Positions 10,301 to 39,876 of a DNA stretch of 64,000 nt are shown in pieces. Numbering within the stretch: position 1 is the first letter of the stretch; each line of letters begins with the position of its first letter. The stretch spans positions 4,526,001 to 4,590,000 of the forward strand of contig CM038998.1 of assembly GCA_017499595.2 (NCBI GenBank), in the 5' to 3' direction. Position numbers and translations under genes: made by a program. Source of the DNA: Psilocybe cubensis (Eukaryota). Below the pieces are notes generated by a model. The model was not told the origin of the DNA. It ran no database searches and saw only the letters and a list, made by a program, of their open reading frames with translations.

Positions 10301-12473
10301 GAATGGCGGGTTGAGCGCTTGGGCGAGACATCGTCGGGACCAGTCCGTCGATTCCGTTATGAGCGACTTTTCAGCTATGCACCTCGGAAGACCCGGGATT
10401 GGCGACAAAATGTTCGATAACGCTGCCCTCGATCACGGTCCTTTGCCCTCTATCTCGGCATCCCCTCCTGAAAGCGCCACCGCGTCGCAGCACCACTTCA
10501 GCCTGTCCAGGCGCAGGTCCTTCGATTCCATTCTTGACGAGGAACAGCGTTCGTCGATGGGAGAGGACTCGCTGTTTGAAAAGACGGGTTATCGGTCGTC
10601 GATTTCCGAATCTGTTTTCGGCGATGACTTGGCGCATCAACTTCAGGGCGGGCTTTTGCCGCCTAACCACTTCAGGCCCCTGTCTATGCTGAGTGCACAC
10701 AGCGTACACAGTCCTATCAGGGAAGATGACACCATGATCAGTGTATGTGCTTTAAATGCATCTTTTGTCTTTTTATTGATTGGTTTTTTTGTAGATGTTG
10801 GGCGGCGGACATGTACGTCGTCGTTCGGTTGGCTCGATTGTCGAGGCGTCTCCATGTGTTCGCGTTGAGAAACGCAAACACTCCGCCGTTCAAGATCTCG
10901 GCTCGCACTTCTACAAAGGCAAAGAACATTATGAGTCTCCTAATAAAGCCAGGATTGTGGAGAAGCCTTCCATTGCCTCCACTTCATCGTTCCAGTTCGG
11001 AGGCGAGCGCATGATCAAGGCTCAGCGCGGACTTTTGGAGAGGCAGAGTCTAGAGGAACATTGCCTTGTAGGTGATGGGGAGGATCTATCTGCCTCTTGT
11101 AAGTTATTGTCAAACTTTTATATACTCGGTGACTCATATATTATATTACAGACCACGCTGTACCTGTATTCACCAGACCTGCCCCTGCCACCCGCTCGCG
11201 CTCGAGCACCTGTACATCATCGAGCTCTGGAGGCGATACCCCACCACTTTCCGCCTCCGACGGGTCTTCAATCTCTGGTGGTTCACAATCCAGCATCGAC
11301 CTTGCTCAAATCAACATTGCTCTGTCAAATGCCACTCACCCCATGTCCACGGTTGCCAGGAACCACGCTCGCACTCGCGCTCGCGCGCGTGGTGCTGGGC
11401 ATCGTCGCCGTTACTCTAAGTCCCACGTTTCGCGCTCCTCGGTGTACGAAACGATTGAGGAGGAGCTGCAGTCCAGTCACTCGAGTCCAGCGCATTCGCT
11501 TCCGTCCAAGAAGAGCAGCGATGACCCTACGACAACTCAGGGTGTTTTCATCGTCGACTCTGATACTGCTTCGCTTAACTCTAGGCCTGAAGAATCTACA
11601 TGGGATGACGAGCGAGGCATTGTCGCTCTCAGGAAGTATTACGCCCTTCGCGACGAGGCTCAAACTACCGTGACTGAAAGTCGCAGACTGTGGTCTGATA
11701 CGCCGTTTTCTATCTTTGCCATACAATGTAAGTTTTCAAATATTGAACTAGTCAGCTTGCTCATGCTTTTATGTCATAGCCTTCCAAGCTCCTGGAAGTC
11801 CTGCCGGCATGCAAGCGCTCCTTCAACACTCAGTGCAAAATTACGGCCCGCTTCCATCTGAACTTCGCCCGCACCGTCGCACCCGTACCTCATCTCGTCC
11901 ATCGCCTTACCCTCAAGGCCGCAGCTCCAAGGCTACCTTGTCACCTGAGAAGAAACGGTCGACTGCTTTCGAGAAGGATGATCAATGCACCCCTGTCCTC
12001 CAACAGGTCTCTCTCAACCAGAACCGTGACACCAAGACGGCTAAAGCATCGACCAAAAATGCGCCATTCTTGAGCGAGCTCAAACCCTTCTCGCCTCTGG
12101 TCATTGATGATACCGAGCCAAAGCGGGAGAACGCCTTTGGACTAGCACCCAATGCGCGCCCGCGTGTGGGTTCCAACGCCCGTCGTACCGCGCTTGGGTG
12201 GACGAAGAGGAGCACAGGCACTAGCAAGTCGTCGACTGACCAGAAGGAGAATGTGTCCATGGGTACAATTGCAACGTACGTTGATCTTTCGATTGTCGGA
12301 TTTCAATGAGCTAATTAGATTTTTCATTCTGTAGCCCTGGAGAGAATTTAAGGCTCAACCGTCCCAGACCTCGAGGCAGGCCAACACCTGGAGGACGTAC
12401 TCCCGCCTCCGCTGCTGCCGCTAACAGGCCTCCGGTCACTGCTGTCCCAACAAGCCGAACCATCCGAATCTAA
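4360..12473 (+). CDS. Very large Ser/Pro/charged low-complexity hypothetical protein; exons 4360-5209, 5269-5307, 5441-7219, 7276-10742, 10795-11098, 11152-11727, 11780-12275, 12335-12473
   Basis: Long ORFs are linked in phase by seven GT-AG introns checked by hand; ends ...RTIRI* at TAA 12471-12473. No catalytic motif recognised. Confidence 0.8.
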
Positions 12474-14168
12474 ACTGTGCATGAACTTCACGATTTATGA
12501 TCTGTTTCGTTACGAATGCCCATTTCTTGAAATTTCTTTTTTTTGCCCTGTTTATCCTCTCCAATTTTCTTCCATCCTCGCTATGAAACATAAATTTGCT
12601 ATCCTGAAGTTATTGCTATCCACAGTGCTCTCGATTTATCTGTACCATTCTAGTTGACATCTACATATAATGTGCCAATTATCGTCGACTCGACTTTTTT
12701 TCGTTGCCCTGTTTTTTCTCTTTTTTTTGCTCAATTATATCCTCCACTCCGCTGTTCGTTTCCCATGTGTAGAATACTTTGAGCTTCCCCCACCCTTTTT
12801 TTAGCTGATGACAAGTGTGTTATTCAAATCGAATGTACGAAGAAATATCTTCCAGAATCTTTTCTTTGCTCGTTATTTATGTACAATCTCTACTTTGTAT
12901 TCGTTGATCGAATGACATTGGTGTTGATTGTCAACGTTGGAAGGCCAAGCGAACTTGAGTTAATTGGATGAGTAAAACCATTAACTATCCATTACCATCC
13001 CCGCTTCGCGAAGTATTCCAAACTATCCTTGGTCGTCTCCCGCAACGTGCGGTACTCAATACCCAAGATCTATGGCTGTCCGTTTGCACATTTAATACCA
13101 ATATATAAACTTCTTGTCCCATACATATAAGTCATAATTGAATATAATTCCAAATGTATACTTTGGTGTCCCGGGTATAGACAGATGGTTTCCGAACATA
13201 TCAATCCAGTACCCATATATTCATAGGTTGCACCCTCAGATACAATTTTGAGTACCATACATAAAGTTTTGATGCCCACGTATACAAATTACAATCCCTT
13301 ACATAGAAAAAAACACTCATTTTTGTACATATTTTGTTCCCTTACTTGTATCTGAAGGTTCCCATATGATTGTTCTTACCTTTCTTCATCCCGAAGATAT
13401 ATAGTCATTTTTCGGCATTCTGTCTATGCCGTGAATGCCTAGACATCGTGAGAATCGGCAAATCTCGGCAAATGAGGACACAAATTACACTTCATTGCCT
13501 GTATGCCTGTCGACACACGCTGATTGAACATTGAAATCATTCACATTTATCCAAGCAATCAATATCTTTCTGTGTAGGCTGATTGCATAAATAGCTTGTC
13601 TTCATAGTCTAATACAAGTGCTTTGACCACTCCCAGTCGCCGTTCTAAGGCTTAAAAAGGCCTAAAGTTGAGGTTGAAGACAGAAAATTGCATTGGAATA
13701 GCCTATATGTAGTCTTATGTTATTTTAATGTATGAATTTATCCTCCTAATGAATTGTATAATCTTGTAACGACCGTCCTACTGTCTTCACAAGTAGCAAT
13801 CCACTGCAAGCGGGACGAAAATCGAGTTCCCACGCCTCTACGGCAAGGACGGCACGCGTAATTTTCATCTGGACAACTCTATATCTTCGGACAAAAATTG
13901 AGGTAGATGCGGAGAGGGTCACAGAATATGGTACTAAATTTTTTATGTACGGGTAACATACCCTAATGTGTGCAGCTCCCATTCAAACTGAAGAGCATGC
14001 AAAGTCAATGACTGGGATAATTTCTTCTATGCTCGGAAATTATTTCTCTATAACCGGGACACCAAGGTACTTGTTTTAGTGGGCCACCGCGGAGCGTGGC
14101 ATGACGAGTCTTTACGATTCAGTGTCACGCTTTGTAATAATATAATATATATATAATATAATATAAAT

Positions 14169-15143
14169 ATGTCCAACTTTGACGTGGATAACGGTGCAAT
14201 GGACAAAGTGATATTCAGACTCCAAGGCATAGTTAGCGACAAGATGCTACCACCAATGGCAAAGCCTGCTTCGTACGTCCACTCCATTGAGGTGAATTAA
14301 TTACAAATGAGGACTGTTACAGCCGCGACAGAACGGTCAAGCAACAACCATATTTACGTACCGCCATTGCTATTACGGGACTCGGAGACATTGTGTTCAA
14401 TAAGGTGATGGAAAAGCTAGAAGAAGTTTTCCTCCGTTTTGCAAACAATTTTCCCGCGGACAGCGTCAGCAGCTATGACCCAGTTCTTCACAAAGACACG
14501 GGTTTCAATGTTTTCCATGCGCATAGCCAATATTTCACGAAGGTATCCGCATATCAAGACAAATCTGACAACATAGGTTTTCATCCCCTGGTCAACCCTG
14601 ATAATGTGTTGGCGTCCATGGTAGGGGACAGTTTCATCCACGCAATCGATAACAAGGTACAGTTTCTTTGTCGGGAGATACTTCCTAACGGAACAGCCAG
14701 GTATGTTTAGAAAATACCAACAACACATCACAACCAAACTAATATCATGTTGCAACAGATATTATTCTTATAATCCTGCCTCCATACGAATTGGAGACAT
14801 TGTTGTGATCAGTGTTGCCTTTGTCGCATTTCCTGCCCAAGGAAACAAGTACAAATTTGTTGTCGCTCTTCGCGGAATACTTGTCTTGGACCAGGAGGCA
14901 AGAGAGGTAAGCAATGTTATATTGAACAGTCTCATAGCCATTCATAACTTCCAACAGAAAGCTGATATTCTCAGAATGCGGTCGCACTATACTCCAGCAA
15001 AAAGACAGGTTGCTGTTTTGTGTAGGACAAAGAGGCAGCTGTACAAAGGTCAGATTGACATTGAAGACACGCAACAGAGGATGGCACGTATGCGCTTAAA
15101 TGAGGACACAGTCCACAATAGCAATACTATGTCCCAAGATTAA
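14169..15143 (+). CDS. Element-borne hypothetical protein, putative OB-fold ssDNA-binding-like; exons 14169-14272, 14323-14700, 14759-14906, 14958-15143
   Basis: Four exons join in frame via GT-AG introns. Motifs VIFRLQGIV..LPP, YLRTAIAITGLG, HAIDNKVQF and NPASIRIGDIVVISVAF...KFVVALRGILVLD (beta-rich). The fold is an inference. Confidence 0.6.
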
Positions 15144-15288
15144 TACATATGTACATAGAAAGACAAGGATATCATAAATGTGCTAAACGAACAATCAATC
15201 CATTTGCGTGAACATTGTAAATAACAAGGAATAATTTGTCAAGTTATTTTCATGACAGAAATTATCTGAAGGTGTTAGTTGGCACCCC

Positions 15289-15469
15289 ATGGGAGAATCC
15301 TGCGTACACTGTATGCAGAATATTCCCACACTCGGCTGAATATCGGCGAGGAAGTCCGTGGGAGAATTCTGCGTACACTGTACGCAGAATATTCCCACAC
15401 TCGGCTGAATATTGGGAGAGGTTGACCGTGGGAATATTCTGCGTACACTGTACGCAGGATATTCCCACG
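15289..15469. repeat. Three tandem ~69-70-bp units, each with a ~41-bp imperfect palindrome (GTGGGAATATTCTGCGTAC-act-GTACGCAGGATATTCCCAC)
   Basis: Directly visible; lies between the 3' ends of the two convergent element genes. Confidence 0.9.
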
Positions 15470-17289
15470 CTCATCCGCAAGTCAAACTTACAAATTAAGA
15501 CAAAAAGAATGAGGACGAGAACACAAGTTTATTTTGAACAAAAATTTGACTAAGGATGGAAGAAATTACAAATATCCATTCCACAAGAGGCTTTATGGTT
15601 GAGAGTGATGCAACCAAAAAATATCTGCCTTTCTGGATAGCAAATACAAAACAGTTGCATGTACACGGTCATCTTTTTGCCTACATTACAGGAATTAAAT
15701 TGACAAATACTAAAACTAAAGAGCACACACCTTATACCCCTTTCCCAGGATTTGATAGCTTTTTTGACACGCTTGTGTAATTGGTAAACATCTGCCGCTG
15801 TGTAGTGAAAATCTAATGCGATACCGCTGATGCGACGGACACCAAAATGCAAACAATCAAATTCATTGAGCAACAATGCCCACAAATTGGCTTCAACAAA
15901 GGAAGTCTGATTTGCTTTGGGTAAAAGAGGCAAAGAATAAACCCAACAATGCCTGTCGCCAACCCGTTTAATCCCAGGAGAGAACAACTCTGGATAAGGA
16001 TCGTAATCCAGCACAACGAGAACATGACCACAAGATGAACTATACCTAACATTTACATTGTCCCTGATAGACTGTATCCTGCTTTGGATATGGCGGTCCA
16101 TTTTCAAAGTTTGCGATAGAATGGAAAGAACAAATTTCAAGCCACGGGAATGATATTTTGCAAGAAATTTTTGCGCGCACTTGAGGTCGGCAGAAGGTTG
16201 CAACAGAGAGACTTGATGTCCAAAGGTAGCATTTGGATACAAGCTGTACACCTTCTCAAAGGTAACAAAATTCATGACGCCGGCTGCAGTAGAACAAAAT
16301 TGAAGTTAACATTGTTTCGACACATGACATTGGGGACATACTGCTATGATACCCCAAAATGCACTCTACCACCGATTGACAAGTCGTAATCAGTTGGACA
16401 AAAGAACCTTGGCACCATAGGTTAACGACCACTCCAGTGGTATTGTAATGTTGATGAAGAGGATGTTTCTGAAGGACGATTTTTTCCATTTTCAAAATTT
16501 TTTCCGCTGTGGTGTTGTCTGGATATTTGGGATGCGGCATGATAGTAAATCCAATGGACATCATCCAGGAAAGAACGGGAAGAGCATATCTGTGCTCAAC
16601 ATACATGTCCATGTCACCCGGAATCCATATATTAGCACAATTGATTACGAAACTTTATGTAAGTAAAGCGAGTTCTTTTATCCCCACAACCCACTGTACA
16701 AAAATATGTCCTTGCCAATTGTCCCCATCAGTAAATCATTGATGCCATCAAAATTGCGTGATTAATACCAGTTTTTTACTTAACCGGTATGCTTGACTTA
16801 ATAATTGGTTACTATCATAGAATTTCTGTTAGTTTTTGTTCCTACCAAGGGGATATGGAAATTAAAATACTAGATATTAGCTAGGTAGATAGGTTAGCTG
16901 CCATATGGTAGAAAACAAAATTAGATACCATTACATTATGACTTTTTAATTGCAAGTTAAACATTTTGACGCAGATAATCATCGCTCATAACCAAAAATT
17001 TTATAATAATGACCTCATTCAACTGATTTAAGGCCATTAATTAGTCACAATCAATTACATACCAACTGTTTTGCATGCTTTATACACCTCTAACGGCAAG
17101 TAGAGGTAAATAGAATGCTTTATTGTTATCAAAAAAAATTTAGCATGAATGACTAGCAGACTGTGGTGGCATAGAATAAAGAATAATAAACATTATGTAT
17201 CTAGCTATTATCTTTAATGCCACTTCAAATAACTTGTCATATTAAACTTGTTGTGCTGTTCATACTGGCCATGAATTAATAAGCAGACT

Positions 17290-17567
17290 GTGGGAATAAC
17301 TTGCATATAGTGTATGCAAGTTATTCTCACGGTTGCCGCACTTTGCATTGAGCAACTTGAACTTCTCTGGTAATTCCTGATATATTACTGAGATGCATTA
17401 CATATACTTTAGGTAAAATACAAGTATTTTTGGCAATAATAATTATTTTCAGTCCTAGTTTAGATGATCTTATTATATTTTACTTGCTGTGGTGTTTGTA
17501 CTGGCCGTGAATTAATAAGCAGGTCGTGGGAATATCCTGCGCACACTGTACGCAGGATATTCCCACG
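17290..17567. repeat. Two more copies of the ~41-bp palindrome family (17290-17330, 17525-17567)
   Basis: GTGGGAATAACTTGCATA..TATGCAAGTTATTCTCAC and CGTGGGAATATCCTGCG..CGCAGGATATTCCCACG. Confidence 0.85.
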
Positions 17568-20335
17568 GTCACTACACTCAATTTGCATTGAGTGGTGGTG
17601 ACCAATCCCTGATGCGTGTGACCGCGGGTGACTTGGGTCGTCACACTGTGACACCACCCATATCTTGAGACATTGACTTTATGCTTCATGCATTGGTAGC
17701 ATAAATTGTAAAATGGCTCCAATATAACTATATAATATATATCTACACTCTGTGAAAGTAGCTAAGGCTAAGATGCAATGTGTCTTTTCAAAATGCAAAA
17801 TGTTACTGTTTTCCCTGCCAAAAATAGTGCTCTTGACTATATAACTATTATCATTACAGCGGATAATGCTATCAGAATGGTTGATAGAGCAAAAAGTATC
17901 TATTTTCAATTCTAAACAACTCTATCAGAGCGGAATTTTTGATTTCTCTTTCATTGCTGAGATATACCCCCAAAATAGCGGTTTTTAGATACTTAGAGAG
18001 AGAAAATAAAAATTTCGCTCTGACCACGTTGCTTGTATTGAAAAATAGACCAATTTCGCCCCCTAAATCATACCTTGAATCGATGTTCTCAGTGAGCTAT
18101 TCTCCTCGTATTGATTTACCTGCAAAATGACAATAACACAGCCACTGATTGCATTCCCGAACGGGCCGGAAATGTCCCGCGACTGCCACACGGATGCCTC
18201 GCACACTCAAAATAGTCTCGAAATAGCGTATATATACACAGAGGCTGCGCAGAAACACTTCTTTCCCCTTTACCACCATCATCTCCACACACGACTGCTC
18301 AATTTTGTTGTTCTTTGCATTTTTGGACCCAATATCTTTGATTCTTCTCTCTTTTGACCACATATTGACTGTGTATATCTCCAGTAAGTAGATTTCTTTA
18401 TTCTAGAGTTGTACTATTGCTGAATAAATTTAACAGTCTCTTTTTTGCAACCTATAAGCCTGCTTTTAAATAGCTTTTTGTCTGTAACCTTTGGTGAGCT
18501 ATTATATAAAGCTAGGATGTATTATTCTAATTTATTATTTTGCAATATGCAAGATTTCTTGACTATCATGCCGCCTGGCAAAGCAAAACGGGTTGTATCC
18601 ATTGCAGCAGCCAGAGAGGCTAAAGCAGAGAAGAAAGCTGCGCTTGACTCAGAGACTGCATTGGAGAGTCTTTGGGAAGAACTTAAAGCTGCACAATTGC
18701 TTTCTAAAAAGGAAAAGGAGTGTGCTGGTCTAAGTTTAAGGCTTGAAAGTGCTCTTTTGGAGTTAGACAAGCATAAGAACGAAGCCTCCTTGATGAAGTC
18801 CAAAAGCAAAGACACTTATCATGAGCTTCGCATGCAACGTCAAACTACAAAGCGCTGGAAAGCTAAAAACTCTCAATTAGAGGAACAAATTATGATTTTA
18901 AAGACAGCGGAGGAACAAGCATCCATACAGCATTTACGTGGAGCTCAGCAGTCACATGAATCCTACTTATCACTTAAAAAGGCTAATGAAGAATTGCGAG
19001 ACACCTTATCTAAATCCTTATCCCAATGGTCTCTCCAACTGGCTGATGCACATTCCAAGCTCAGTATATCCAATGACCGTCTGCAGGATCTTCGAAAAGA
19101 GGCACTGAATCTGCGCAAAACCTTGGAATACACCAAAGCTACCAAGAGTGAAGCTCTTGCTAATTTGCGTCATAAAATTTATCAAGAGCGATCTGTTCAT
19201 CATTTGACTAGCAAAGGAGTTATTACAGAAAGCACTCGGGATGTTGTTCGTCTTCTTGTTAAGGCTGGCTGCTTACGCAATTATATCCAAGATGTTATAG
19301 TAGCCGTGTTAAAATCTGCAGGATTGGAAGCTATTGGTGGAATCAGTCGGGCTTCAGTGTCTTGCATTCTTCGCGAAGGTTACTTTGCTGCACAAATTCA
19401 ACTTGGATATGAAATGAAGAATACAGATGGAATGACCTTTAGTGCCGATGGTACAGGCCACCGGAGTATCAATTATAATTCCCGACATGTTCATCTTCTT
19501 GCAAAAGACTACACAACACTTGATGATACCACATCTGAACAGCATGTTACTCGTTCACTTGGAATCCAATCTTCACGGGATGGTACAAGTGCAGAAGCTG
19601 TAGCAGATTGGCAAAAATCATTGGAGGGAATTCTTAACATTTACAACAATAGTCCACTTGGCAAGCGATCTGGATCCATTTTTAAAATTGCAGAACTCTT
19701 TATAAAACTTATGGGGATGAATACCGATCATTGTGCAAAGGAAAAGAAGGATGCTCGTTTATTAGAGGCAATAAAAGCAGCTGCAGTTGATCAACAGCTT
19801 GGAGAGGAAAGAATGCTTGAAATGTCTTTTGAAGAAGTTTCAGAATATTTTCAAAAGGCTGAAGCGGCTATGATAAAGAAGGCAGGAGGGCAGAAAAAAT
19901 GGGATGCTTTATCAGATATCCAAAAAGGAGAAAGAAAAACTGTTATGTTGGAGACTGCAATTGCGCAACTTGGAAAGACTGCTTTTGATAGCCTTCCAGA
20001 CTCTGAAAAGCGACTTCTTCGATTATTCATTTGGGCTGGATGTGGATGCCACAAAGACTTAAACACAGTCAAGGGTGGCTATATAGCAATGCTTAGGTGG
20101 TGGAATGAGAATGAAAGTGATGATGTTATCCGTCCAGTTCTGTTGGCAAATCGTGACAATGATCCTGTTATACAAGAGCGTGCTGCTATACTTGAGGGCG
20201 GAAATATACCCACAGCTGCTCAGGAGAGAGCCTTTTCTAAATCAACTCGAGGCGCAATTAAAACTGCTGAAATTGCTGGAGCTATCTTCAACCACAAGGA
20301 TGATAAGAAAGGGCACCATGATGTATTCCGCTTTT

Positions 20336-20785
20336 TGTCAGGGTTTCTCCAGTTTCCCCTCTTTATCTTCACAGAATTATCTTATCCTTTCATTATCTTA
20401 TCAATTATCTGATTAGATAGTTTATTTCTTTCATCACAGCCTTTTTGCTCCACTTCTTTCTAGTAAATTCTATATGATTCCTAGTCTTACTCATCCTTTT
20501 TCTATATGATGTCACTTTTATTCTTTAACCTTCCTTTATGATGTAATGTAGGGAATATTCTAGAATAGCTGTAGAGTATAAATACTGGACTTGTAGGTAG
20601 CTGTAGCTTCAGCTTCAATCTCTTAGGATATCCACTATCATTGGTGTGATCTCTTAGAATCATTGAATCTCTCTCACACTCTTATTCTCTCTTTGCTCTC
20701 TTATTCTCCCTCTGCTCTCTCTCTCTCTCCCTTGCTTAATCTTTGTTGGTGGCCTTGTCACACTGATTATAGTGTTGCCCTGACA
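20336..20785 (+). repeat. 5' LTR
   Basis: TGTCAGGG...CCCTGACA; TATAAATA at 20577-20584; identical by eye to 26278-26727. Confidence 0.97.
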
Positions 20786-20787
20786 GA

Positions 20788-20798
20788 AGATTGAAGCT
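20788..20798 (+). promoter_or_regulatory. Self-priming primer-binding site (Tf1/sushi type)
   Basis: AGATTGAAGCT is the exact reverse complement of AGCTTCAATCT at 20611-20621, about 27 nt past the LTR TATA box. There is no TGG tRNA-type PBS. Confidence 0.8.
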
Positions 20799-21295
20799 CT
20801 CTCAAGACAACTCCACCATCTCTTTTTCAACACCACACTCTTCACCTCTTCAACCTCTTCAACATCATCACCTCAACCTTCTTCCTCCACTTCCAACCCA
20901 CCAACCTCTTCATCAACCTCTTCACCAATCTTCTTACCAACCTCTACATCTCCACCAATCTTCAACATCCTCCTCAAGACCTTTCCTCAAGACCTTTCCT
21001 CAAGACCTTTGGCTCATCATCTTTCCTACTCTCTGTTGTGTGCTGTGTGTGAACTTAGTAGATAGGGATACCAACTGTTGGGGCAGACACAGTCCTACTA
21101 GTGTTCTGTTTTTGGTGGTCTAGGAAATATCCAGTAACCCTGTGATCCTAGGTTTAGAGCCCTGAGTGGTGTGACAACTGGGTATCCAGTAGATAGATAT
21201 TTTTTTAGAATACTTAGTATAGTTTCAAGGGCACTTTTAGTAGATAGCTTCTCCCACACACACATCAGAGAGCCTACCTACCCCTACCCATAGAC

Positions 21296-22399
21296 ATGGA
21301 CCCCTCCCAATTGCCTCCCACCACTCCTTCTGTGGAAGAGCTCATGCATCAGGTCCAGCTCCTTACCCAAGAGTTGAATTTTCTTAGACAGCAGCAGCAG
21401 TCATCATCCACTCCACCACATCCTCAGCAACCAGTCAGTCAGTCACCATCATCATCACCACCACCACCACCTGCTGCTCTAGATATTCACTCTTTCCCTA
21501 CCCCTCATGTTGCCCCTTCCTGTTCACACTCTGTCATTAAAGTCTCACCTCCAGATCCATTTGATGGTTCTATGGAGAAGGCAGAAAGCTTCCTCAGTCA
21601 GCTCAAATTATATTTCTATGGGAAAGGGATTACAGATGACTTTCAGAAAGTTATTTGTGCTCTATCTCATATGAAAGGAGGTACTGCTGGGAAGTGGGCA
21701 TATGAGAAGACTAAAGTAATAGACAATGCTCAGTCCCAAGAAGGTCTTTGGGCTGACTTTGTTTATGAATTTAGGGAAGTGTTTGCAGATCCAGACCCCT
21801 CCAACACAGCTAAGCATAAAATGCACATGCTCAAGCAAGGCAGACAGACTGCTGATGAGTATGTTGCTAGCTTCAGGGCTCTGATCTCAGATACTGGGTA
21901 TAATGATGCTGCTTTGGTAGACCAATTCAAGGCTGGGCTCAATGAAACTCTCAGGAATGCAGTCTACTATGTTCCTGACATGCCCAAAACCTTGGATGGA
22001 TGGATTAAATGGAGTACTAGGCTAGATAGGCAGTGGAGACAGAGTGAGGCCTTTACCAAGTCTCTTTCCTCCTCCTCATCTTCTCCCTTTCTTAAAGCCC
22101 CAACTCCCAAGGCTGTTCCTAAGCCTACTCCAAATCCTCCAGTCTTTTCCAACAGCAGCTCAAGGACCTTTGGTGCTCAGGCAAAGCAACCAGATGTAGT
22201 TCCCATGGAGGTTGACTCTGGATGGAAGTCAGTTAGGCCAATTGTTTGCTTCAAGTGCAGAAAGCCTGGTCATAAGGCTGTAAACTGCAGGTCATCAGTT
22301 AACATCAATGCTATGACCCATGAAGAACTGGCTGACTACTTTGGGAAATTAATCTTGGAAGGCAAGGAGCAGAAAGATGAGGAAAAGAAAAATTTTTAG
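21296..22399 (+). CDS. gag: Retrotransposon Gag with CCHC zinc knuckle
   Basis: PDPFDG, LKQG..TADEY...F and [14 protein letters not shown]; ends on the slippery A-AAT-TTT (22390-22396) just before TAG. Confidence 0.92.
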
Positions 22400-25300
22400 A
22401 AGCACCATTGGTGAAAGACATGTCCCAATGGAATAGATTTAATGTATTAGAAAATGAAATTGACAGACTTGATCCTCAGTCTTCAGATTCTGGTACAGAA
22501 ATCATGTCTTCTTCTTCCTCTCTTTCTACCTTCCCTGAAAAGATCTACATCCTCAACCATAATCCTAAAACCTCTACCCATTTGTCTGTCATCTTAAAGA
22601 CAATGGACACAGAGAAAAGGTTATCTGTTGATGCTTTGCTTGATTCTGGAGCTACTGGCCTCTTTCTGCATTCTGGTTTTGTGAAGTATCATAATCTCAA
22701 CACAAGGAAACTTCCTAGAGCCATTCCAGTCTATAATGTTGATGGTACTCTCAACAAGAGTGGCTCTATCCATGAGGAAGTAGACTTAATTATGGTACAC
22801 AAGAACCATACAGAAAGGGCCACCTTTGCTGTTTGTGACTTGGGAGACAAATCTGCTATCATTGGACATACTTGGCTTTGGCACCATAATCCAGATGTTG
22901 ATTGGAAGACAGGGGATGTTCAGTTTATTAGATGTCCCTCTGACTGCCAAATGGAAGCCAAAAGAGCCAGAAGAAAGAGGCAGAGAATAGCTGCAGTCAA
23001 AAGGAGGAAACTCCCTCAATTTGATGAAGAAGAAGATGATTCTATTGAAGATTCTTCTGATTCTGAGATTGAGCCTGAGGACAGAATTTTCATCTCATAC
23101 CTTCATCCTCAGAAGCAGTCTATTAATGCTACTTCTACTATGTCTCAAAGATTAGCAGAAGAGTCTCATCAGCAAGCTGATTCTCCTAAGAAAACCTTTG
23201 AAGAAACTGTCCCTAAGCACTATCACCAGTTTAAAGGTGTTTTTTCAAAGGAATCTTTTGATAGGCTACCAGACAGGAAGCCTTGGGATCATGCTATTGA
23301 GCTGAAACCTGGTTCTGAACCTTATAGATCCAAGATTTATCCTCTCTCTCCCAATGAACAAAAGGAACTTGATGCCTTTTTAGAGGAAAATCTGAAGTCT
23401 GGCAGGATTAGACCCTCCAAGTCACCTATGGCCTCCCCTGTATTCTTTGTCAAGAAGAAGGATGGATCTCTTAGGCTTGTCCAGGACTATAGGAAACTGA
23501 ATGAAATGACCATCAAGAACTCCTACCCCCTTCCATTGATTTCTGACATTATCACCAAACTCAGCAAAGCCAAATACTTCACCAAACTTGATGTTAGGTG
23601 GGGATTTAACAATGTCAGAATCAAAAAGGGAGATGAATGGAAAGCAGCCTTTAGAACCAATAGAGGGCTGTTTGAACCATTGGTCATGTTCTTTGGTTTA
23701 ACCAATAGTCCTGCTACCTTCCAAACTATGATGAATGATATCTTTATTGAGCTCATTGATGGAAATGTTGTCATTGTCTACATGGATGACATTTTAATTT
23801 TCACTGAGACTCTTGATCATCATAGAGAGGTAGTCAAGCAAGTTCTGCAAATCCTAGAACAGAACAAACTCTACCTTAAAGCAGAGAAATGTGAATTTGA
23901 AAAGGAAAAGATTGAATATCTTGGACTAATCATTTCACAAGGCAGGATTGAGATGGATCCTGTCAAGGTAGAGGGAGTTTTTAAATGGCCTGAACCTGAA
24001 AATGTCAAGGATGTCCAATCATTCTTGGGATTTGTTAATTTTTATAGAAGGTTCATAGAGGATTTTGCAGACATTGCTAAGCCCCTTCATGAATTGACAA
24101 AGAAAGGAACAGTCTGGAGATGAAGTCTTAGACAGCAGGAAGCCTTTGACCAGTTAAAGAAGAAAGTCACTTCTTCACCTGTCTTGATTTTCCCTGATGA
24201 TAACAAGCCATATAAAGTTGAAGCAGACAGTTCAGATTATGCTACTGGGGCTGTTTTATCTCAGGAAGGATCAGATGGGAAATGGCATCCTGTAGCCTTT
24301 ATGTCTAAGAGTCTATCTGAAGTAGAAAGGAATTATGAGATCCATGACAAAGAGATGCTGGCTATTATCAGAGCACTAGATGAATGGAGACATTATCTTG
24401 AAGGAACCCAACATCCCTTTGAGATTTGGACAGACCACAAAAACTTAGAGTACTTTATGGTTGCCCAAAAGCTCAGCAGAAGGCAAGCCAGATGGTCACT
24501 CTTCCTGTCCAGATTTGATTTTACTCTTCATCATAGGCCTGGTAAAAGATCTCTTAAGCCAGATGCTTTGTCTAGGAGACCAGATCATAAAAAGGGAGAG
24601 AATGATAACCAAAATATAGTTCTCCTCAAACCTTCCTACTTTAAAATCCAGGCTCTCAAGCAGGGTCATGCTACCATTACTGGTGCAGAAAATGATCTTC
24701 TTAAGAAGATTAGAGAAGCTAAGGAGATGGATGAAAAGGTGGTCAAGGCAGTTCAGGAGCTCAAGAAATCTTCTACCAAGAAGATTGAAGGACAGGAATG
24801 GTCAGAAGAACAAGGCCTTATTCTCTACAGGGGGAAGGTGTATGTTCCCAAGGACAAAAATCTTAGAAGAAAGATTGTGGAACTGCACCATGATGCCTTC
24901 ATTGCTGGACATCCAGGGAAATGGAAGACAATTGAGCTAGTCTCTAGGAATTATTGGTGGCCAGGAATGTCACATTTTATTGCAGCCTATACCAGAGGTT
25001 GTGATAGATGCAACAGAACCAAAACCTTTCCAGCCAAACCTCTTGGCCTCTTGATTCCTACTGAGATTCCCTCTGATGTCTGGCAATACATCTCTGTGGA
25101 CTTTATTATGGGATTACCAGAATGTCAAGGGTATAATGCCATTATGGTGGTTGTGGATAGACTTAGTAAAATGATCCACATTATCCCTACTACAGATGAA
25201 GTCACTTCTGAAGGGACAGCCAGACTATACAGAGATTATGTCTGGAAACACCATGGCTTACCCATTAAAATTCTGTGTGATAGAGGTCCACAATTTGTCT

Positions 25301-26277
25301 CAAGGTTTATGAAAGAACTCAACTCAATACTTGGTATCCAGACAGCCTCATCTACAGCCTATCATCCCCAAACTGATGGTCAGACTGAAAGAGTTAACCA
25401 AGAAATTGAGCAGTATCTTAGACTCTTTATAAACCATAGACAAGATGATTGGGTTGAATGGTTAGCTCTAGCTGAATTCTCTTATAACAATAGAGTTCAG
25501 GCTTCAACCAGGCAGACACCATTCATGCTCAATAATGGCAGACATCCCAGAATGGGCACTGAACCCCTTAGAGATAGTAAAATGGACACTGTGGATACCT
25601 TTGTGAAAAATATGGAAGAAGCCAGGAAAGAAGCAGAGTCTGCACTTAGAAAAGCTGCTGATGATATGGCTAAATTCTATAATAGACACAGAGGTACTCC
25701 AACTCAGTACAAAGTTGGGGATTTGGTATGATTGGATGGCAAAGACCTCAAAACTGATAGGCCCTCCAAGAAATTGGATGATAAAAGATATGGGCCTTAC
25801 AAAATTACCAAAGTTATTAGCCCTAATGCCTATGAGCTTAAGCTGCCATCTACCATGAAAATCCATCCAGTGTTCAATGTGGTTAAACTTCTACCTTATC
25901 ACCCAGATATTGTAGGAAGAAAGCCTCCTTCTAGACCACCTCCTGTCATTCAAGGAGAAAATCCTGAGTGGGAAGTTGAATTTATCAAGGACAGCAGACT
26001 TTTTAGAAACAAACTTCAATATTTGGTCAAGTGGAAGAACTATCCTAATGAAGAATGCACTTGGGAGCCTGCAGAGCATTTAAAAAATGCTTCTAAGGCT
26101 ATCAAGGACTTCCATGCCAAACATCCTTCAGCACCTAGAAGGATTTCTGCTGTGACCTTTGATAGACTTTCTTTCACTCCTATTATTAACTTTACTGAAC
26201 CTCCTCCTCTTCTTAAACCCTCTAAACTAACCCATCCATGTGCACATTGTGGAAAATGTGCCTTAGAGAGGGGGTGA
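22390..26277 (+). pseudogene. pol: Pol (protease, RT, RNase H, integrase, chromodomain) in the -1 frame, with two in-frame TGA codons
   Basis: [29 protein letters not shown] and D-D-E integrase, GPY motif, chromodomain EWEVE..YLVKWKNY..TWEP. TGA at 24121-24123 and 25729-25731. Confidence 0.92.
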
Positions 26278-26727
26278 TGTCAGGGTTTCTCCAGTTTCCC
26301 CTCTTTATCTTCACAGAATTATCTTATCCTTTCATTATCTTATCAATTATCTGATTAGATAGTTTATTTCTTTCATCACAGCCTTTTTGCTCCACTTCTT
26401 TCTAGTAAATTCTATATGATTCCTAGTCTTACTCATCCTTTTTCTATATGATGTCACTTTTATTCTTTAACCTTCCTTTATGATGTAATGTAGGGAATAT
26501 TCTAGAATAGCTGTAGAGTATAAATACTGGACTTGTAGGTAGCTGTAGCTTCAGCTTCAATCTCTTAGGATATCCACTATCATTGGTGTGATCTCTTAGA
26601 ATCATTGAATCTCTCTCACACTCTTATTCTCTCTTTGCTCTCTTATTCTCCCTCTGCTCTCTCTCTCTCTCCCTTGCTTAATCTTTGTTGGTGGCCTTGT
26701 CACACTGATTATAGTGTTGCCCTGACA
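26278..26727 (+). repeat. 3' LTR
   Basis: Direct repeat of 20336-20785. Confidence 0.97.
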
Positions 26728-29700
26728 CTTTTGGTGGTGGGAGCATATTGGAGTTCCATTTACATTTCCAGATACTTCCAACAATCGGTTTCAATCCTAT
26801 TGCGATGCATCTGCTGCACTTTTTTTGTATAAAGAAGAGTTCAAGCTGTTTTTGGAAAATCTCCGTGTCAACAAACAAAACTCAACACTCAACCATATGG
26901 AAACCAATCTTATGAATGCTCTCAACTGTTCTTCTACCGATAGCAAGCTTGCAGTTTTAGCAATCTATGCTGAATGTGTTTCTTATCCTTACATGAAGGC
27001 TATCCGAGCTTCAAATGCACAGAGCCAGAATATGCTTGATCTTGGCCCTCTTCATTCTCAAGTTTACAATCATTTGCAGAAACTTATCAAAAATCCCAAA
27101 ATCCTTACTATTGATCTGGACCCTTTAACTTCATACAAATCAGCAACACTCAATGGAGATGAATGGCAAAATATTGATGTTTTGCACAAAATTAAATCTC
27201 TTCTTCCTGATCTGCCTCACTTTGAGGAGCTTCTTGTTGCATTTCTTGAGGGTGCTGCTGAAACTTGGGATCGGTTTACATCCGAATTTGCACCAGGAGG
27301 CTTGATTGATGAATCAACTGCAGAAGAAAAGCAGCTTGCATGGATGCCAGCAACAAATGATGAAAATGAAGGTGCACTTGGTGCATTTAGGGTTCTTATG
27401 CGGCACCAACCCCAGCTTACTCTTTTGGATCATAACGCAATATCAATGTATTTTCGTAATCAAACTCAGTCATTTGTTGCTGCCAAATTTACAAAAGAAG
27501 AAGACTACCAGTATATTCGAAATCTAGCACGGAATTCAGGAGAGGAAGAAAGAAAGAGACGTAAAGACCTTGTTGATTTCCGCAACACACGTCAGAAACA
27601 GAAAACCAAGCGAAAAGAAACTCGAGAGCAAAATGCCAAAGATACAGCGGCACGACTTCAGCAGCTAAATCTTATTTTAGACAAGACCAAGATTTGTGGG
27701 CTAAAAGGAAAAAGTCTTACTGATCAGCTCAAGCTCTTTAAACAAGCTGGTGCTCCAAATATGCAATCTGGTCGCCTTCCTACCCGTGTTAATGATATCC
27801 GTGAAATATTAATCAAGGCAATTGATTTGATGGTTGATGGCACTTGGATTATTGAGGAAGAGGAGGAAGAGAGCGAAGAAGACATGGATGAAGAGGAAGA
27901 ATGGGAAGATGATGATGGAAGTGATACTTAAACTATCACAACAAGTTCCCAATTATGTGTAGTATACTGCAGATCTGTTCATGTATATTGAAGTTTTTGT
28001 AAACATTTGACAGGAAAATTATACAAAAAAATGTTGGTTATGGGTATATATCTAGTTCTATTAGTTTCAAATGTTATTGCATATAAACGAGACAATGTTA
28101 ACTTGATAATCTTCAAGGCAATCATCAAAGATAACATCATTTTCATAAATTGTGCTATCATGTACGCATTTTTGACGTTTTGGCATATCTTATGCTACAG
28201 AATTATTCTCTATATTTTATGACACATATTCAGTGCAAAAAGTTTGGGAGAAAACGGTTGGAAACACATGAAATAGCAGTGTCTCAAGCAAATCTCAAGA
28301 TATGTGATGCTCTCGCGCGTGTGACGTGACGTCACGCGGCGAACCGGCCATCAGGGATTGTGCAACTCCACATTGAGCACTGGCCACTTTGGTCAAGAGA
28401 TGGTCATTTTGAATAATGTTTTCCATGCATTGAATGTATTTTGGGGAAGAAATAATGCACTAACACTTGCAAATTATGCTTGAAATATGTTTCCACACAG
28501 CCAATTGTGTTTACAGCAACATCAAACTATGCCAAAAAGAAATATGCGCACCAAACAAATGTTTTTGCACACAATATTGTTTCACTCTTGATGCACTTTT
28601 CAAAAATAAGAAAATTATATTTATGGGAAATATGTCCCCACTTTGGCAGCCATACACATGAGCATTCTTCCATCAGTTTTCCATACGGGATTCTCCCAGC
28701 AGATTTGGAATTCTTCAATATTTAGCAGGTATGAAAATTATAATAGACAAGTTCTTCCTTACAATTAGGCCTTATAACCTGTGCAGCTATTTTTTGTGTC
28801 TGACACAACTAAGCTTGTAGTAGACCTAAGACATAGTAATTAATCATAACCTTGCCCAGTATCTGGCTGTACATTCAGAACATATTAATATATATTAACT
28901 ATGTTATATAAATCTAGATTAAAAAATATTTTATACAATTGTGAGATGTAAAGTCTTGTCATGCCACGCTTTGCGTTGGACCACTAAAACAAGTAAAATG
29001 CAAAACGGTGGAACCTGAAATAACCAGGCCAGTCTTGAACTGGAGAAGACGAAACAGCAAATGTTCATTGGGTTTGAAGATAGGAGCAAATAAATTTTTG
29101 GGACGGAAGGCGCGGCGCATATAGCCCGAAATGCGGTTGTTTAGCTCCTTGCAAGTCCAAGAGAAACGGTAGAGGGTTTTCAGATCCATCTGATCCATGT
29201 ACACATCGTCCATGGGAGGCGGAAAGACTCTAAAAAATAAGTAATAACCAAATGAGATAAAACAGTGAACATACTGTTGGAAACGGGGGGATAACGCGGA
29301 AGCCATGGGTAAAACAGTGCGGAGAAAAGTGCATTGTCTATACTACGTCAATAAATATATTAACTGTAAGCCGATAGACGCCCGACGTAGGGGAAGAACA
29401 ATTGGTATGCGTGAGAAACGATCATGAATCAGAAAATCAAATTCAAATAGTACAGAACGCCCAGAACCCAAGAACGCGTAATTATTTCTATTTGAACTCT
29501 GATTGATGAAGCTACCAATATCAAGGAACGTGTGTGCCTGCACAGTTCTATTTCCAACCTTTCAGACCCATAGTTCAAAGAGTGCATTTGTTCCATCTCT
29601 AAGTATTAGTACAATATATAAGCACGTTGGCTAGACGGTTCCACATGGTTTTAAAAATTAAACAACAACGCAAAAAAGTGAATTGAGTAGGACTATTGTT

Positions 29701-32406
29701 GTTGGGTATAATTAATTTTATGGAAACGCACATTCACATTGCGATCAAAACAAATCAAAAACAACCTTTAAAGTAACCAATGGTAAAAAGAAGTCGTAGA
29801 ATGAATTGGAAAGGGGTTGCTTAGGGGGTCCGGTGACCGCTTAAGGAAAATACCGATAGCGGTAACGACATTGATCGCATCAATAATATTTTGATGGGGA
29901 CAATTGGCGAGGACATTTTTGCTCGCTGGGTTGTGGGGATAAAAGAACTCATCTTTACTTACGTAAAGACTCGTAATGTAGTTGGGTTCAAGCAAAATTG
30001 CGATTTATATGTATGGGGATAGAAGTTTATACTTTGGCATTAAATGTGCAAACGGACAGCCATAAAGATCCTCCGTTCCTTGGTCCGATCATACAGAATA
30101 TTGTGAACCTTTTCGCCCTTTGTAGTCTCCGGATATCCGTCGACTGTAAGTTTGCGTGGTTTATCTAAGAGAGAATTGGCTTCATCCACTTTAAAGAAAA
30201 ATGGAGATATCCCAGTCAACAACCAACCAGTCAAACCATGTCATTGGTCAAAAACAAATTTGGCAACTTACACCATTCTTGCCAAACATACCCGCCTGGA
30301 AAAAAAGAAGTACGAGTTATAATTAGATCATTTTTTTAAGTCAGATATAGGTTCAAGGCGAGGGGGATGGAAAGTGACTAACCGGCTGAAGTTATAATTC
30401 GCTCTCCTCCCGCATCTGGCTTTTCCAACGCGAGCACATGGGCAAGGGCGACGTCCCGCACGTCCGCCCACGCATTGGACTCGGCTATTAAAAATGCTTT
30501 TGATTCAGGGGGTTCAGAGAGCACGGCGTTGTACCAGAACGCTAGAGAGAAATTCAGAGACGACGGTGAGGGGATGTCGTGGATGGGCGGCTGCGATATT
30601 GGGGATAAGTAAGTCTGGGTCTGTGGCTATTCATAAAGAAGTGGTGGAGCTCACCCCGTACACCTTGCGACACGGCATCCGTTGGTCAATTTGTGTATAT
30701 CCTGAGGCATGGAAAGGAACTTACGAATGGCGGGGTAATAACACAGAGATCCCAGCCGCTACTATCTTTATGTTTTTCGTGGAACTCCCATGCCGCTGTA
30801 AATTAAAAAAGAAAGCCATTAAGTATTGCCGTGTAGGGCATGATAGGCCAAATCATTTAAAAGGCGACCTACCCCTTTCCGATAGCGTTTTCGATGCACA
30901 GTAGACTGATAGAGGCGGGGCGTCTTTGCCTTTCTCTTTGACGATTTCGGGATGCACGATATCCCAGTCAAGCTCGCTGTATACCGTCGGCTTCTCGGTT
31001 ACTGGGGGCAACACCGCCGCACAAGAGGAAGTGACGACGATACGCTTTACTTGTTTCCTATAATCATGACACCGCATGAATAGTGAGTGTTCAAAGATTC
31101 AAGCTCGGGGATACCATAGGTCGCGATTACTCACCCGTACTTTAGCGCGCTCTCCAAGATGCCGACGGTCCCTTGTATAGCGGGTTGTAGAGTCTCTAAT
31201 AAAGATATTTTGTTAGCCGTCGCTGATAATACAGATGAAGAGGACTACCTTCTGGATCGGCGCCAGTTTGTGAATGCACCGGAGAAGCCATGTGTGCAAT
31301 CCCATCGACGTCCTTGACCACCTCATCAAATGCGCCACTCTACCAAGGACGCATTTATCAGTCAGCTATACTCCTGCAGGTTCCGAGGAAATCATCCCAC
31401 CTTGGAAATATCCTCGATAATAGCAAACTCTATCCTATCCCCATATCCAAGCGACGCGAAGTAATCCTTCACAAACTTTGCTTTCGCATCCGCGCGCACT
31501 GTCCCTCGCACAGCGTACCCGCGCTCGAGAAAAATACGCGCTGTCCACATTGCAATGTACCCATTGACACCAGTCACTAGCACTTTCTCTCCCTTTGATA
31601 TGATGGGCATGGTCAGCACGGGTTTCCTTGAGCAAGTCTAAGTCTAACGATTGACGATGGACCAGCACTCCTTTTTGTACGCCAGCAATGGCCGTCTGAC
31701 ACTGGTGTACCGTGTCATCGACGGAAGTTTGGGTACCGGTGAATCATTCTATGCTTGTCACCTAATGAAAACCAGCCTTTCACAAGCATCTCTCTGGCAT
31801 ACAGCAATTACATTGCCGATCAGCGAGTGAAAAAAAATGCAAAGAGGAACGAGTAGGATTGGAGTAGGATGAGGATGAGTAATCAAGGACGATCGTCTTA
31901 CAAATGAAATGTCAGTATCTGAACAACAACAATAGAAACGTGAAACAACCGATAGCACGGTTATTTTTTACCGGGATAGTATGTTTTCTTTTTGTGCCTG
32001 GGGTGCTAGGCGTGGAGGATGGAAGAGAAACTGAAGAGAAACGCGGGCGGCGCGTAAGCGCACAACAGCGCACAACGTGATTTTCTTACATTGGAAATGC
32101 ACGTGACTCTACGCGTCGACGCGTCGACAGTCGCGCGTTACCTCACAAAGCCCCTGAGTATGTTCGCGGGATGAACAAATGAATGGTATGCTTAGATTTC
32201 AGATTTAAATCGTCATGGTAAAGTAACTAATGTCTATAGATTTTATTTTATCGCCGTGTCTATGGACGTCCCACCTCTTCAAAATTGCTGATTGTGCTAT
32301 ATTCAAAGTCGAGAACGAAACAAACAATTAAACGGTATGGAATTTCGCAAGGGACCTAAAGATATACCAGTAGACAGTGTTGATAGAAAGAGGTATCAGG
32401 ATATGA

Positions 32407-38479: not shown

Positions 38480-39550
38480 TCAACTCGTTATAAGGCACTC
38501 GGTAAGTGAATCTCGTAAGCTCCATGAGAAAGCAGGCAGCAGTGTATCGTTGTGCCCGTTGAAATAAGGTCCGATATCAGATTCATCAATAATATCGTCT
38601 TTTAGGAGAAATATTCTCCCTTTTTCCAACCTCCTGAGGTTCTTGGTCCAGCAGCTCTCCAAATAGCTAATCCAATCAGGATATGGTACATTGAACCTGC
38701 CGTCCGTGTTGTCCATGCCCTCTTCTTCAAGAGAATATGCTAGAGACTCGATGTCTTCTTCATCATCTTCGGCAGTCAGTCGACGTTCATGTGGGATGCA
38801 CGGTGGCATTTGGAATTCCATGAGTTTGATTACATAAACGCGACCGAAGAGTTTGGGTTCATCCTTATCGAAAATGAGCCATTCTGTCCTATAGTTATGC
38901 CTCCAGATCAAAAGACCTGGAACAAATTTTGCATTGGGGGTACACTGCCTATAGACTGGCGCAAGAAGTTGAGGGGAATGACTTTTGTACGCCACCCAGT
39001 TAACTCCATCCCTTCTGCTGGGACTGAGGTCATTGCATGAAACAAACGGTAGGCCGGGCCAGATACAATTTATAGTTGCCCGTTCTGGCCATTCAAGAAG
39101 CCATATACGAAATTCTTCAGGAATTGCTGGATATTGAGAGAGGATGGTGTCAATATAAGCCTGGCGGTCAAAAGGCTGCAGATTTTCGAGTATCCAGGAA
39201 CGGGTGTCGATAAAATTTGGTGTATTAACCATCTTCAAATACAGCTCGAGCAAACGGCGCCGTACTGGGTGGATATCAGCGAGAGGAAGGAGGCGTTGCC
39301 ACTCTTTGCATACACCACGAGAAAAGAGGTATGGTTTGAGCTCCAATTGTGAGAAGATATGAAGTTCGATCTCGACAGGAAGTGAATGAAGCGTGGCTTT
39401 GGAAATCCGTAGAATTGCTGCTTCTGCTTTTGTTTCTTCAAGTACCAGCTCGTTTCTAACAAAAGAAGGGGGGGTAAATAATGAATTTTGACCACTGACT
39501 GAAAGAGAAAAGACCATGGTGCAAAGAAAAGAAGCTGACCCATTACACAT
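38480..39550 (-). CDS. Intronless F-box protein
   Basis: LHSLPVEIELHIFSQLELKPYLFSRGVCKEWQRL; start uncertain. Confidence 0.8.
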   Translation of the reverse strand: MCNGSASFLCTMVFSLSVSGQNSLFTPPSFVRNELVLEETKAEAAILRISKATLHSLPVEIELHIFSQLELKPYLFSRGVCKEWQRLLPLADIHPVRRRLLELYLKMVNTPNFIDTRSWILENLQPFDRQAYIDTILSQYPAIPEEFRIWLLEWPERATINCIWPGLPFVSCNDLSPSRRDGVNWVAYKSHSPQLLAPVYRQCTPNAKFVPGLLIWRHNYRTEWLIFDKDEPKLFGRVYVIKLMEFQMPPCIPHERRLTAEDDEEDIESLAYSLEEEGMDNTDGRFNVPYPDWISYLESCWTKNLRRLEKGRIFLLKDDIIDESDIGPYFNGHNDTLLPAFSWSLRDSLTECLITS

Positions 39551-39876
39551 TGAAATATATCTCTAGAGAAATTTATGCTGGAAGAGGGGATGTGAGTGTA
39601 ATTTGTGTGGTGAGCGTCGAAACAAACAAACAAACTCAAACCTCGTGTGCATAGCACGTGCAGTGTGAGAATCGGATTTGGATTACAGCGTCCAGGCAGT
39701 CCACATCACTGTCACTTGACTGTTATCAGAAAGTACGAATGACGAGTGTCAAGTTCAAAAATACTAGAAAAGTGATAAAAAATCACAGCCATCGACTAAC
39801 CAAACGGGTACGTTAATGATATATATTTACCGAGTCAAAAATCACAAGCACAAGTTACATAAAACCCCGTTGGGCG

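Follow-up and report, generated by a model that had tools for sequence, protein, structure and literature searches.

We analysed a 64,000-nucleotide stretch of the forward strand of Psilocybe cubensis contig CM038998.1 (positions 4,526,001 to 4,590,000; assembly GCA_017499595.2), hereafter the window, in whose own coordinates all positions below are given. The window is fungal DNA, with its nearest annotated proteins coming from P. cubensis at 94-97% identity, and it contains an AT-rich island at about 12.3-30.1 kb in which the GC content is about 0.40, as against 0.47-0.55 in the surroundings. The island holds a nest of five insertions with exact boundaries, which are, outermost first, YZ, E1, X0, W, and a Ty3/Gypsy element. 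The subject of this report is E1, a compact, gene-carrying mobile element with ends at 14070 and 29976, together with X0, a short relative nested in one of its two genes; the family to which both belong is referred to as E. When the window was compared with itself, three inverted matches (14068-14115 with 28995-28948, 16644-16788 with 29977-29836, and 13071-13139 with 30064-29996) were identified, along with two 450-nt direct repeats of identical sequence (20336-20785 and 26278-26727).

E1 consists of two arms, both in forward orientation. The left arm (14070-16645) runs from the left end through gene A and a palindrome array into the body of gene B; the right arm (28995-29976) holds exons 1 and 2 of gene B, on the minus strand, followed by the right end. 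Once the nested load between them is removed, the arms form a single insertion of 3,558 bp, in agreement with the 3.56 kb given in the original prediction, an earlier note made from the letters of the window. The two convergent, intron-bearing genes described there are likewise present, with four exons in A and five in B. Gene A (14169-15143, forward strand; exons 14169-14272, 14323-14700, 14759-14906, and 14958-15143) is intact and encodes 271 amino acids, its spliced translation being identical to protein P0127 at 259 of 271 positions. Gene B is split in the window by X0: exons 1-2, encoding an F-box-like N-terminus, occupy 28995-29306 on the minus strand (29306-29275 and 29229-28995; residues 1-89 of P0125 align to 29306-28995), and exons 3-5 occupy 15569-16645 on the same strand (16645-16342, 16283-15731, and 15680 to about 15569), where a stop falls nine codons earlier than usual.

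The central palindrome array that had been predicted lies at 15287-15472, in the gap that separates the 3′ ends of the two genes, and consists of three units of about 70 nt, each with a palindrome of 40-46 nt. The 20-nt palindrome half-site occurs seven times, compared with 0.01 occurrences expected by chance, and the fold z-scores of the three units are -2.9, -6.2, and -7.9, with values of -6 to -8 marking strong palindromes. The number of units differs between E copies, as seen from read joints. When a palindrome of X0 (17283-17336) is set beside one of E1 (15426-15470), the outer arms GTGGGAATA...TATTCCCAC are common to both and the inner letters differ, with both palindromes perfectly self-complementary; it appears that the symmetry itself has been kept. 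The palindromes could serve as a terminator for the convergent genes, as a protein-binding site, or as a recombination site.

The limits of E1 are defined by sequences that it shares with X0 and by sites from which it is missing. The sequence CTTGTTTTAGTGG... stands at 14070 in E1 and, in the opposite orientation, at 28993 in X0, and the sequence ...AAAG(A/T)(C/T)TCGTAA stands at 29976 in E1 and at 16646 in X0; the likeness has sharp limits in both end pairs (TA|CTTGTTTTAGTGG and ...TCGTAA|T). The left end of E1 (14070-14115) has an inverted counterpart at 28993-28948 that matches it at 87.5% over 48 nt (E = 1.8e-11), and its right end (29836-29977) has one at 16788-16644 that matches it at 79% over 146 nt (E = 9e-28), with the likeness between the two right ends stopping at 29976/7. 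Raw reads of X13 and contigs of X1, X5, and X10 were placed on 12000-20335 at 88% likeness, this interval being chosen because it keeps both identical long terminal repeats (LTRs) of the Gypsy element out of one stretch. Contigs of X5 and X10 run from 14069 directly into TGTAGTTGAGTTCAA..., which is the window sequence following 29976, with no duplication. Because these empty-site contigs, which derive from other copies of YZ, join 14069 to the sequence after 29976, E1 was inserted without duplicating its target. For the boundary at 29976, which lies in the right 9 kb, beyond the interval covered by reads, the basis is the comparison of ends together with these contigs.

E1 is one copy of a young, non-autonomous mobile family with about 20 copies per genome. 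The mean depth of X13 reads is 32 over the single-copy flank (taken as 1-fold) and about 704 over E1 (22-fold, or about 22 copies of E1 sequence), and the corresponding values are 686 (21.5-fold) over part of X0, 74 (2.3-fold) over W, and 554 (17-fold) over YZ. The left flanks of the E1 copies are varied, since the 448 X13 reads that enter unlike sequence before 14069 agree with one another at only 0.37 in their consensus, and the copies themselves differ by 2-5%. A target-site duplication is absent at both of the insertions that could be resolved, namely E1 in YZ, from the empty-site contigs, and X0 in gene B, from the in-frame join described below. The targets, read on the minus strand with a 1-nt ambiguity, are GAT^A and CAT^A (that is, AT^A, or A^T). 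The original prediction of a compact, multicopy, non-autonomous element with exact ends at 14070 and 29976, ends that recur elsewhere with sharp boundaries, and no target-site duplication is therefore borne out by read depth, varied flanks, empty sites, and the same ends in X0.

X0 is a gene-less element of about 1.56 kb whose ends are those of E1 placed in reverse orientation; the two ends and the palindromes are all that the two elements have in common. It is itself interrupted, with a 3′ part on the minus strand at 16646-17590 (right end at 16646; palindromes at 17283-17336 and 17525-17571) and a 5′ part on the minus strand at 28376-28994 (family end CTTGTTTTAGTGG at 28993). When 16646-28994 is deleted, gene B is open in frame across 28995|16645 for 403 codons, and the P. 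cubensis gene models P0125, P0142, and P0143 carry exactly this join. The segment is a clean insertion in gene B, because both the intact models and gene B of the window read through once it is removed. The junction of the gene B body with the X0 end also occurs in P0124 and P0134, and that of the gene B N-terminus with the X0 start in P0137. The X13 depth is level over 16645/6, with no strong loose end listed at that point. Most X0 copies are without W, since 400 X13 reads go on past 17592 with the sequence that lies at 28376 in the window (agreement 0.92). Taken together, these observations mean that the composite of E1 and X0 multiplied after X0 had nested.

The ends of E1 are asymmetric. 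The shared terminal sequence at 14070-14117 (CTTGTTTTAGTGG...) contains, besides a small hairpin, one copy of a 13-nt repeat, the inner one (14104-14116), and the other shared end, of about 140 nt at 29836-29976 and closing ...CTTTACTTACGTAAAGACTCGTAA, contains the outer copy (29962-29974) within a hairpin having a 7-bp stem. The two copies form an exact inverted repeat, ACGAGTCTTTACG, that lies 34 nt from the left terminus and 2 nt from the right terminus, and none of 2000 shuffles reached a 13-nt repeat. The asymmetric inverted repeat of the original prediction is thus real, its exact length being 13 nt rather than the 14 nt claimed. Read on the minus strand, E1 starts with TTACGAGTCTTTACG, in which the repeat is 2 nt inside the terminus and part of a small hairpin, and finishes with ...CGTAAAGACTCGT-CATG-CCACGCTCCGCGGTGG-GCCCACTAAAACAAG, in which CCACGCTCCGCGGTGG is a hairpin, 13 nt from the terminus on the 3′ side of this strand, and the partner repeat is 34 nt inside, with the stem-loop between it and the terminus. 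The stem of this hairpin (CCAC-CGC/GCG-TGG) is kept in E1 and X0, and the loops differ.

Canonical Helitron1 elements begin with 5′-TC, end with 3′-CTRR, and form a hairpin 10-12 nt before their 3′ terminus; neither the 5′-TC nor the 3′-CTRR occurs at the termini of E1 (CTTG.../...CGTAA; read on the opposite strand, TTACG.../...ACAAG). Nor does E1 resemble a cut-and-paste DDE element, its termini not being inverted copies of each other and no duplication flanking it. The layout agrees instead with that of Helitron2- and Helentron-derived elements (PMC5148889, PMC4067079, PMC11417382), as had been predicted. In HINE/DINE-1 elements and Helentrons, one copy of a 13-bp subterminal inverted repeat lies 2-4 nt inside the 5′ end and the other 38-60 bp inside the 3′ end; a palindrome is situated 8-35 bp before the 3′ terminus, repeats occupy the centre, and the target is TT (PMC4067079). 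Like these and the HLE2 group, E1 lacks a duplication, carries a 13-nt repeat placed 2 nt inside one terminus and about 35 nt inside the other, has a weakly folding stem-loop that separates the inner repeat from its terminus, and has tandem repeats at its centre, and the members of E have only their ends and palindromes in common, much as the members of non-autonomous Helitron families share only their ends. Unlike them, it has two complete multi-exon genes, long perfect central palindromes, and a basidiomycete host. The Helitron2-like elements FoHeli1 and FoHeli2 of Fusarium oxysporum, also from a fungal host, have an asymmetric inverted repeat of 12-13 nt at their termini, its 3′ copy standing 20-40 bp inside, as well as terminal hairpins and insertion at TNAT^A. 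All of these have parallels in E, whose hairpins are weak, but FoHeli1 and FoHeli2 start with TCAG, end with ATTTT, and encode a Rep/helicase (PMC5148889), whereas E starts with T(T)ACGAG, ends with ...AACAAG(T), and encodes none. HELPO1 of Pleurotus ostreatus resembles E in its Agaricales host and in the intact captured genes of its autonomous and non-autonomous copies, but has the subterminal hairpin and 3′-CT[A/T]G end of a canonical Helitron1 (PMC4289320), whereas E has neither TC nor CTRR. Because Agaricales Helitrons carrying intact "captured genes of unknown origin" have already been described (PMC4289320), E1 probably adds one more element to a type already known.

On the architecture of its ends, we lean toward regarding the E1 family as a non-autonomous element with Helitron2/Helentron-type ends, a reading that we hold with modest confidence and against which several observations weigh. 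No Pfam match to a Rep/helicase (Helitron_like_N, PIF1) was found among the 20 window open reading frames (ORFs) scanned, a search limited to the window; that the element has none is as the original prediction stated. The termini lack the T^T flanks as well as the TC...CTRR letters, and the AT^A target, with boundaries free of runs of T, differs from the T^T target given for HLE2 in general (PMC11417382). In X0, no more than 9 of the 13 repeat positions pair, and there is no compensation. The predicted terminal and subterminal hairpins are present, but they are weak by energy, with z-scores of -2.0 in E1 and -0.15 in X0 (not significant) at the left end and of -1.3 in E1 and 0.11 in X0 (not folded there) at the right end. 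The resolved insertion sites number only two; the reads cover only the left 8.3 kb (12000-20335), which places the joint of the X0 insertion (16645/28995) outside direct view; and no circle or head-to-tail junction is among the read joints listed for 12000-20335. Several of these points, namely the terminal letters and AT^A site that depart from the T^T rule of HLE2 (PMC11417382), the weak hairpins, the degenerate repeat of X0, and a partner that is not known, would fit E being another, possibly undescribed, duplication-free class that is moved in trans by an enzyme other than a Rep/helicase and looks like Helitron2 by convergence. Five features, however, jointly match Helitron2/HINE (the repeat, its two distances from the termini, a hairpin, repeats in the middle, and the lack of duplication; PMC4067079, PMC5148889), and FoHeli1 and FoHeli2 insert at T^A too (PMC5148889), so that we consider a separate class unlikely, though well worth keeping in mind. 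Far less credible is a reading of 14070-28993 as a single cut-and-paste transposon with 48-nt inverted ends, a TA duplication, a transposase of about 1000 amino acids, and genes A and B as passengers. The inverted repeats 14068-14115 and 28995-28948 do have TA flanks, and the ORF of that size within this segment probably encodes a DDE transposase, judging from its predicted fold. Yet the empty-site contigs resume at 29977 and not at 28995, intact gene B joins 28995 to 16645, and the ORF has its own inverted ends and TTG duplication (17591 and 28372), with the ends conserved in five of the eight metagenome loci inspected, and a depth of about 2-fold compared with about 22-fold for E; we reject this reading as close to excluded.

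The two genes bear on a further alternative, in which the element carries A and B as a working module, either for mobility, with A acting on single-stranded DNA (ssDNA) and B in nucleotide transfer, or as a selfish pair that it spreads. Gene A and gene B are neighbours as 11 adjacent locus-tag pairs in P. cubensis, and the cassette therefore travels as a unit. The gene A family is multicopy in this species, and its length is exactly 271 amino acids in 11 of the 15 main-cluster members listed. In gene B, the family consensus has ISGS...DLDLYV in its core. Pol-beta-type nucleotidyltransferases have a G-S...D-x-D signature, which we take the gene B motif to resemble, and a third carboxylate. As a lead only, an Atlas feature search placed a Gad2-family cluster at rank 20 with a score of 0.91. 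The intact reading frame of A in the window also favours a module, but with copies only 2-5% apart it says little about selection. Against a module stands the finding that gene B is interrupted by X0 in most copies, as seen from read depth, read joints, and gene models: because it is broken in most copies while the composite multiplied, gene B is not needed in cis. Its relatives, moreover, form 1038 representative clusters at E ≤ 0.001, and all 10 of those looked up by name are from Agaricales, as is typical of a host family. The gene A protein, called OB-fold-like in the original prediction, has no Pfam match at E ≤ 1 except CDC48_N at 0.06, and a search of the gene B family profile against the sequences of solved structures in the PDB gave no significant match, the best having E = 0.027. 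The AlphaFold model of gene A, with a predicted local distance difference test (pLDDT) score of 40 from an input of 12 near-identical sequences, is unusable. We consequently do not uphold the dedicated module of ssDNA binding and nucleotide transfer proposed in the original prediction, and hold a module of either kind to be improbable. The gene A protein has an H-A-H triplet, which reads Y-A-H in a single copy, and, close to its C-terminus, a conserved tyrosine. A more specific version, in which gene A is a new mobility or ssDNA factor that, helped by an intact, nucleotidyltransferase-like B, moves a duplication-free family and recognises hairpin and palindrome DNA, seems to us more improbable still.

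Other searches with the two genes gave the following results. A word-based search with exon 2 of gene A returned six paralogues, all from P. cubensis, and no relatives beyond this species, and the Atlas look-alikes of gene A were unnamed Basidiomycota clusters only. Between gene A and 152 relatives of gene B, blastp and phmmer found nothing below E = 0.18, and no relatives of A or B were found in 80 metagenome loci. Gene B is a predicted member of a large Agaricales F-box-like family: the F-box profiles PF12937 and PF00646 matched 7 and 6, respectively, of 48 aligned relatives, and three of the ten relatives looked up by name are labelled "F-box domain-containing protein" in UniRef. For P0142 and P0125 themselves, no Pfam match, F-box included, was found. 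At JR316_0004007, JR316_0004008, and JR316_0004011 (P0142, P0148, and P0166), a copy that has B intact, together with an A of greater length and divergence, stands four locus tags from a B paralogue, which is single-copy and 43% identical. The region of JR316_0004007/8 to JR316_0004011 may be the source locus of the captured A/B cassette.

Returning to the Helitron2-type reading, a Rep/helicase encoded elsewhere in the genome would nick one end of E1, and a single strand would be displaced as far as the hairpin end and then pasted in at AT^A without duplication. Genes A and B would be cargo and not machinery. The sequence of events was that X0 landed in gene B, the composite multiplied, W later landed in X0, and the Gypsy element landed in W. 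If a Rep/helicase partner exists, E would be a young, active-looking Helitron2-type family of a mushroom that carries two whole genes in about 20 copies. E1 offers a clean case for studying how such elements acquire and spread complete genes. The exact boundaries of the nest are useful for repeat annotation of Psilocybe-like genomes, in which the fragments of gene B currently stand as genes in their own right.

The innermost DNA transposon of the nest, W, lies inside X0 at 17591-28372 (forward strand) between copies of a TTG duplication (17588-17590 and 28373-28375). Its ORF of about 1000 amino acids is split by the Gypsy element into 18571-20335 and 26728-27931, and its inverted ends, approximately AGTGGnGnTGnACAATCCC, are conserved around homologous ORFs in the five metagenome loci counted above (L004, L005, L007, L032, and L072), where the W-like elements measure 4.2-4.8 kb. 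The 3-bp duplication reads TTG in the window and GAT at L007, and it would be AAA at L032, assuming that the repeat there starts with TGG; no clear duplication of this type is present at L004 or L005, and the flanks at L072 share 7 nt instead. The model of the W protein (pLDDT 78.5) has an N-terminal coiled coil of 200 residues, and its best match is the Hermes transposase, with a Foldseek probability of 1.0 and a VIA Z of 13.7 over 332 residues at a root-mean-square deviation of 5.0, followed by ISCth4 with a Z of 9.3. On the strength of this model, W is a DDE cut-and-paste element with a Hermes-like transposase and is not the partner of the E family; the ORF had been considered as the autonomous partner of E, and this was rejected, as it belongs to W with its own ends. 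W shares with Hermes and other hAT elements a predicted RNase-H-like DDE core with a large helical insertion, but it differs from them in its duplication of 3 bp rather than 8 bp, in the lack of a hAT Pfam match in its protein, and in its coiled coil. With 209 related proteins at E ≤ 0.001 and 347 metagenome stretches encoding one, W represents a widespread Agaricales transposase family that is not named by any Pfam model, and the family may be an unnamed Agaricales transposon family.

Two further observations concern W. In contigs of X1, X5, and X10, 24 extra nucleotides follow 18697, so that the window copy is short by eight codons, in frame. Upstream of the ORF, a non-coding block at 17915-18023 is 72-74% alike in L005, L036, L039, L040, and L068 and may be a promoter or binding region. 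The Ty3/Gypsy chromovirus within the W ORF occupies 20336-26727 on the forward strand, with 450-nt LTRs (TG...CA) that are 100% identical and a CTTTT duplication. Its Pfam domains, namely gag, protease, reverse transcriptase, RNase H, integrase, and chromodomain, are spread over four adjoining stop-to-stop frames, and the insertion looks very recent.

The host element of E1, YZ, is about 1.09 kb long (13071-14069 and 29977-30064), with inverted ends of 69 nt (13071-13139 and 29996-30064) and an AAGATC duplication. In X13, 108 reads join 13139 to 14069 on opposite strands, which suggests that the inner segment of YZ is inverted in other copies. A second gene B paralogue considered at 14069-13140 was discarded, tblastn having returned nothing there and the flank being explained by the empty-site contigs. 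Elsewhere in the window, 5395-10865 holds two long open frames of 657 and 1202 codons, with no Pfam match at E ≤ 0.001. Four more F-box-like genes, for which tblastn found no kinship to gene B, lie at 38480-39559, 40433-41464, 48658-50022, and 54000-55565, and the first two of these are tandem paralogues that are about 80% alike.

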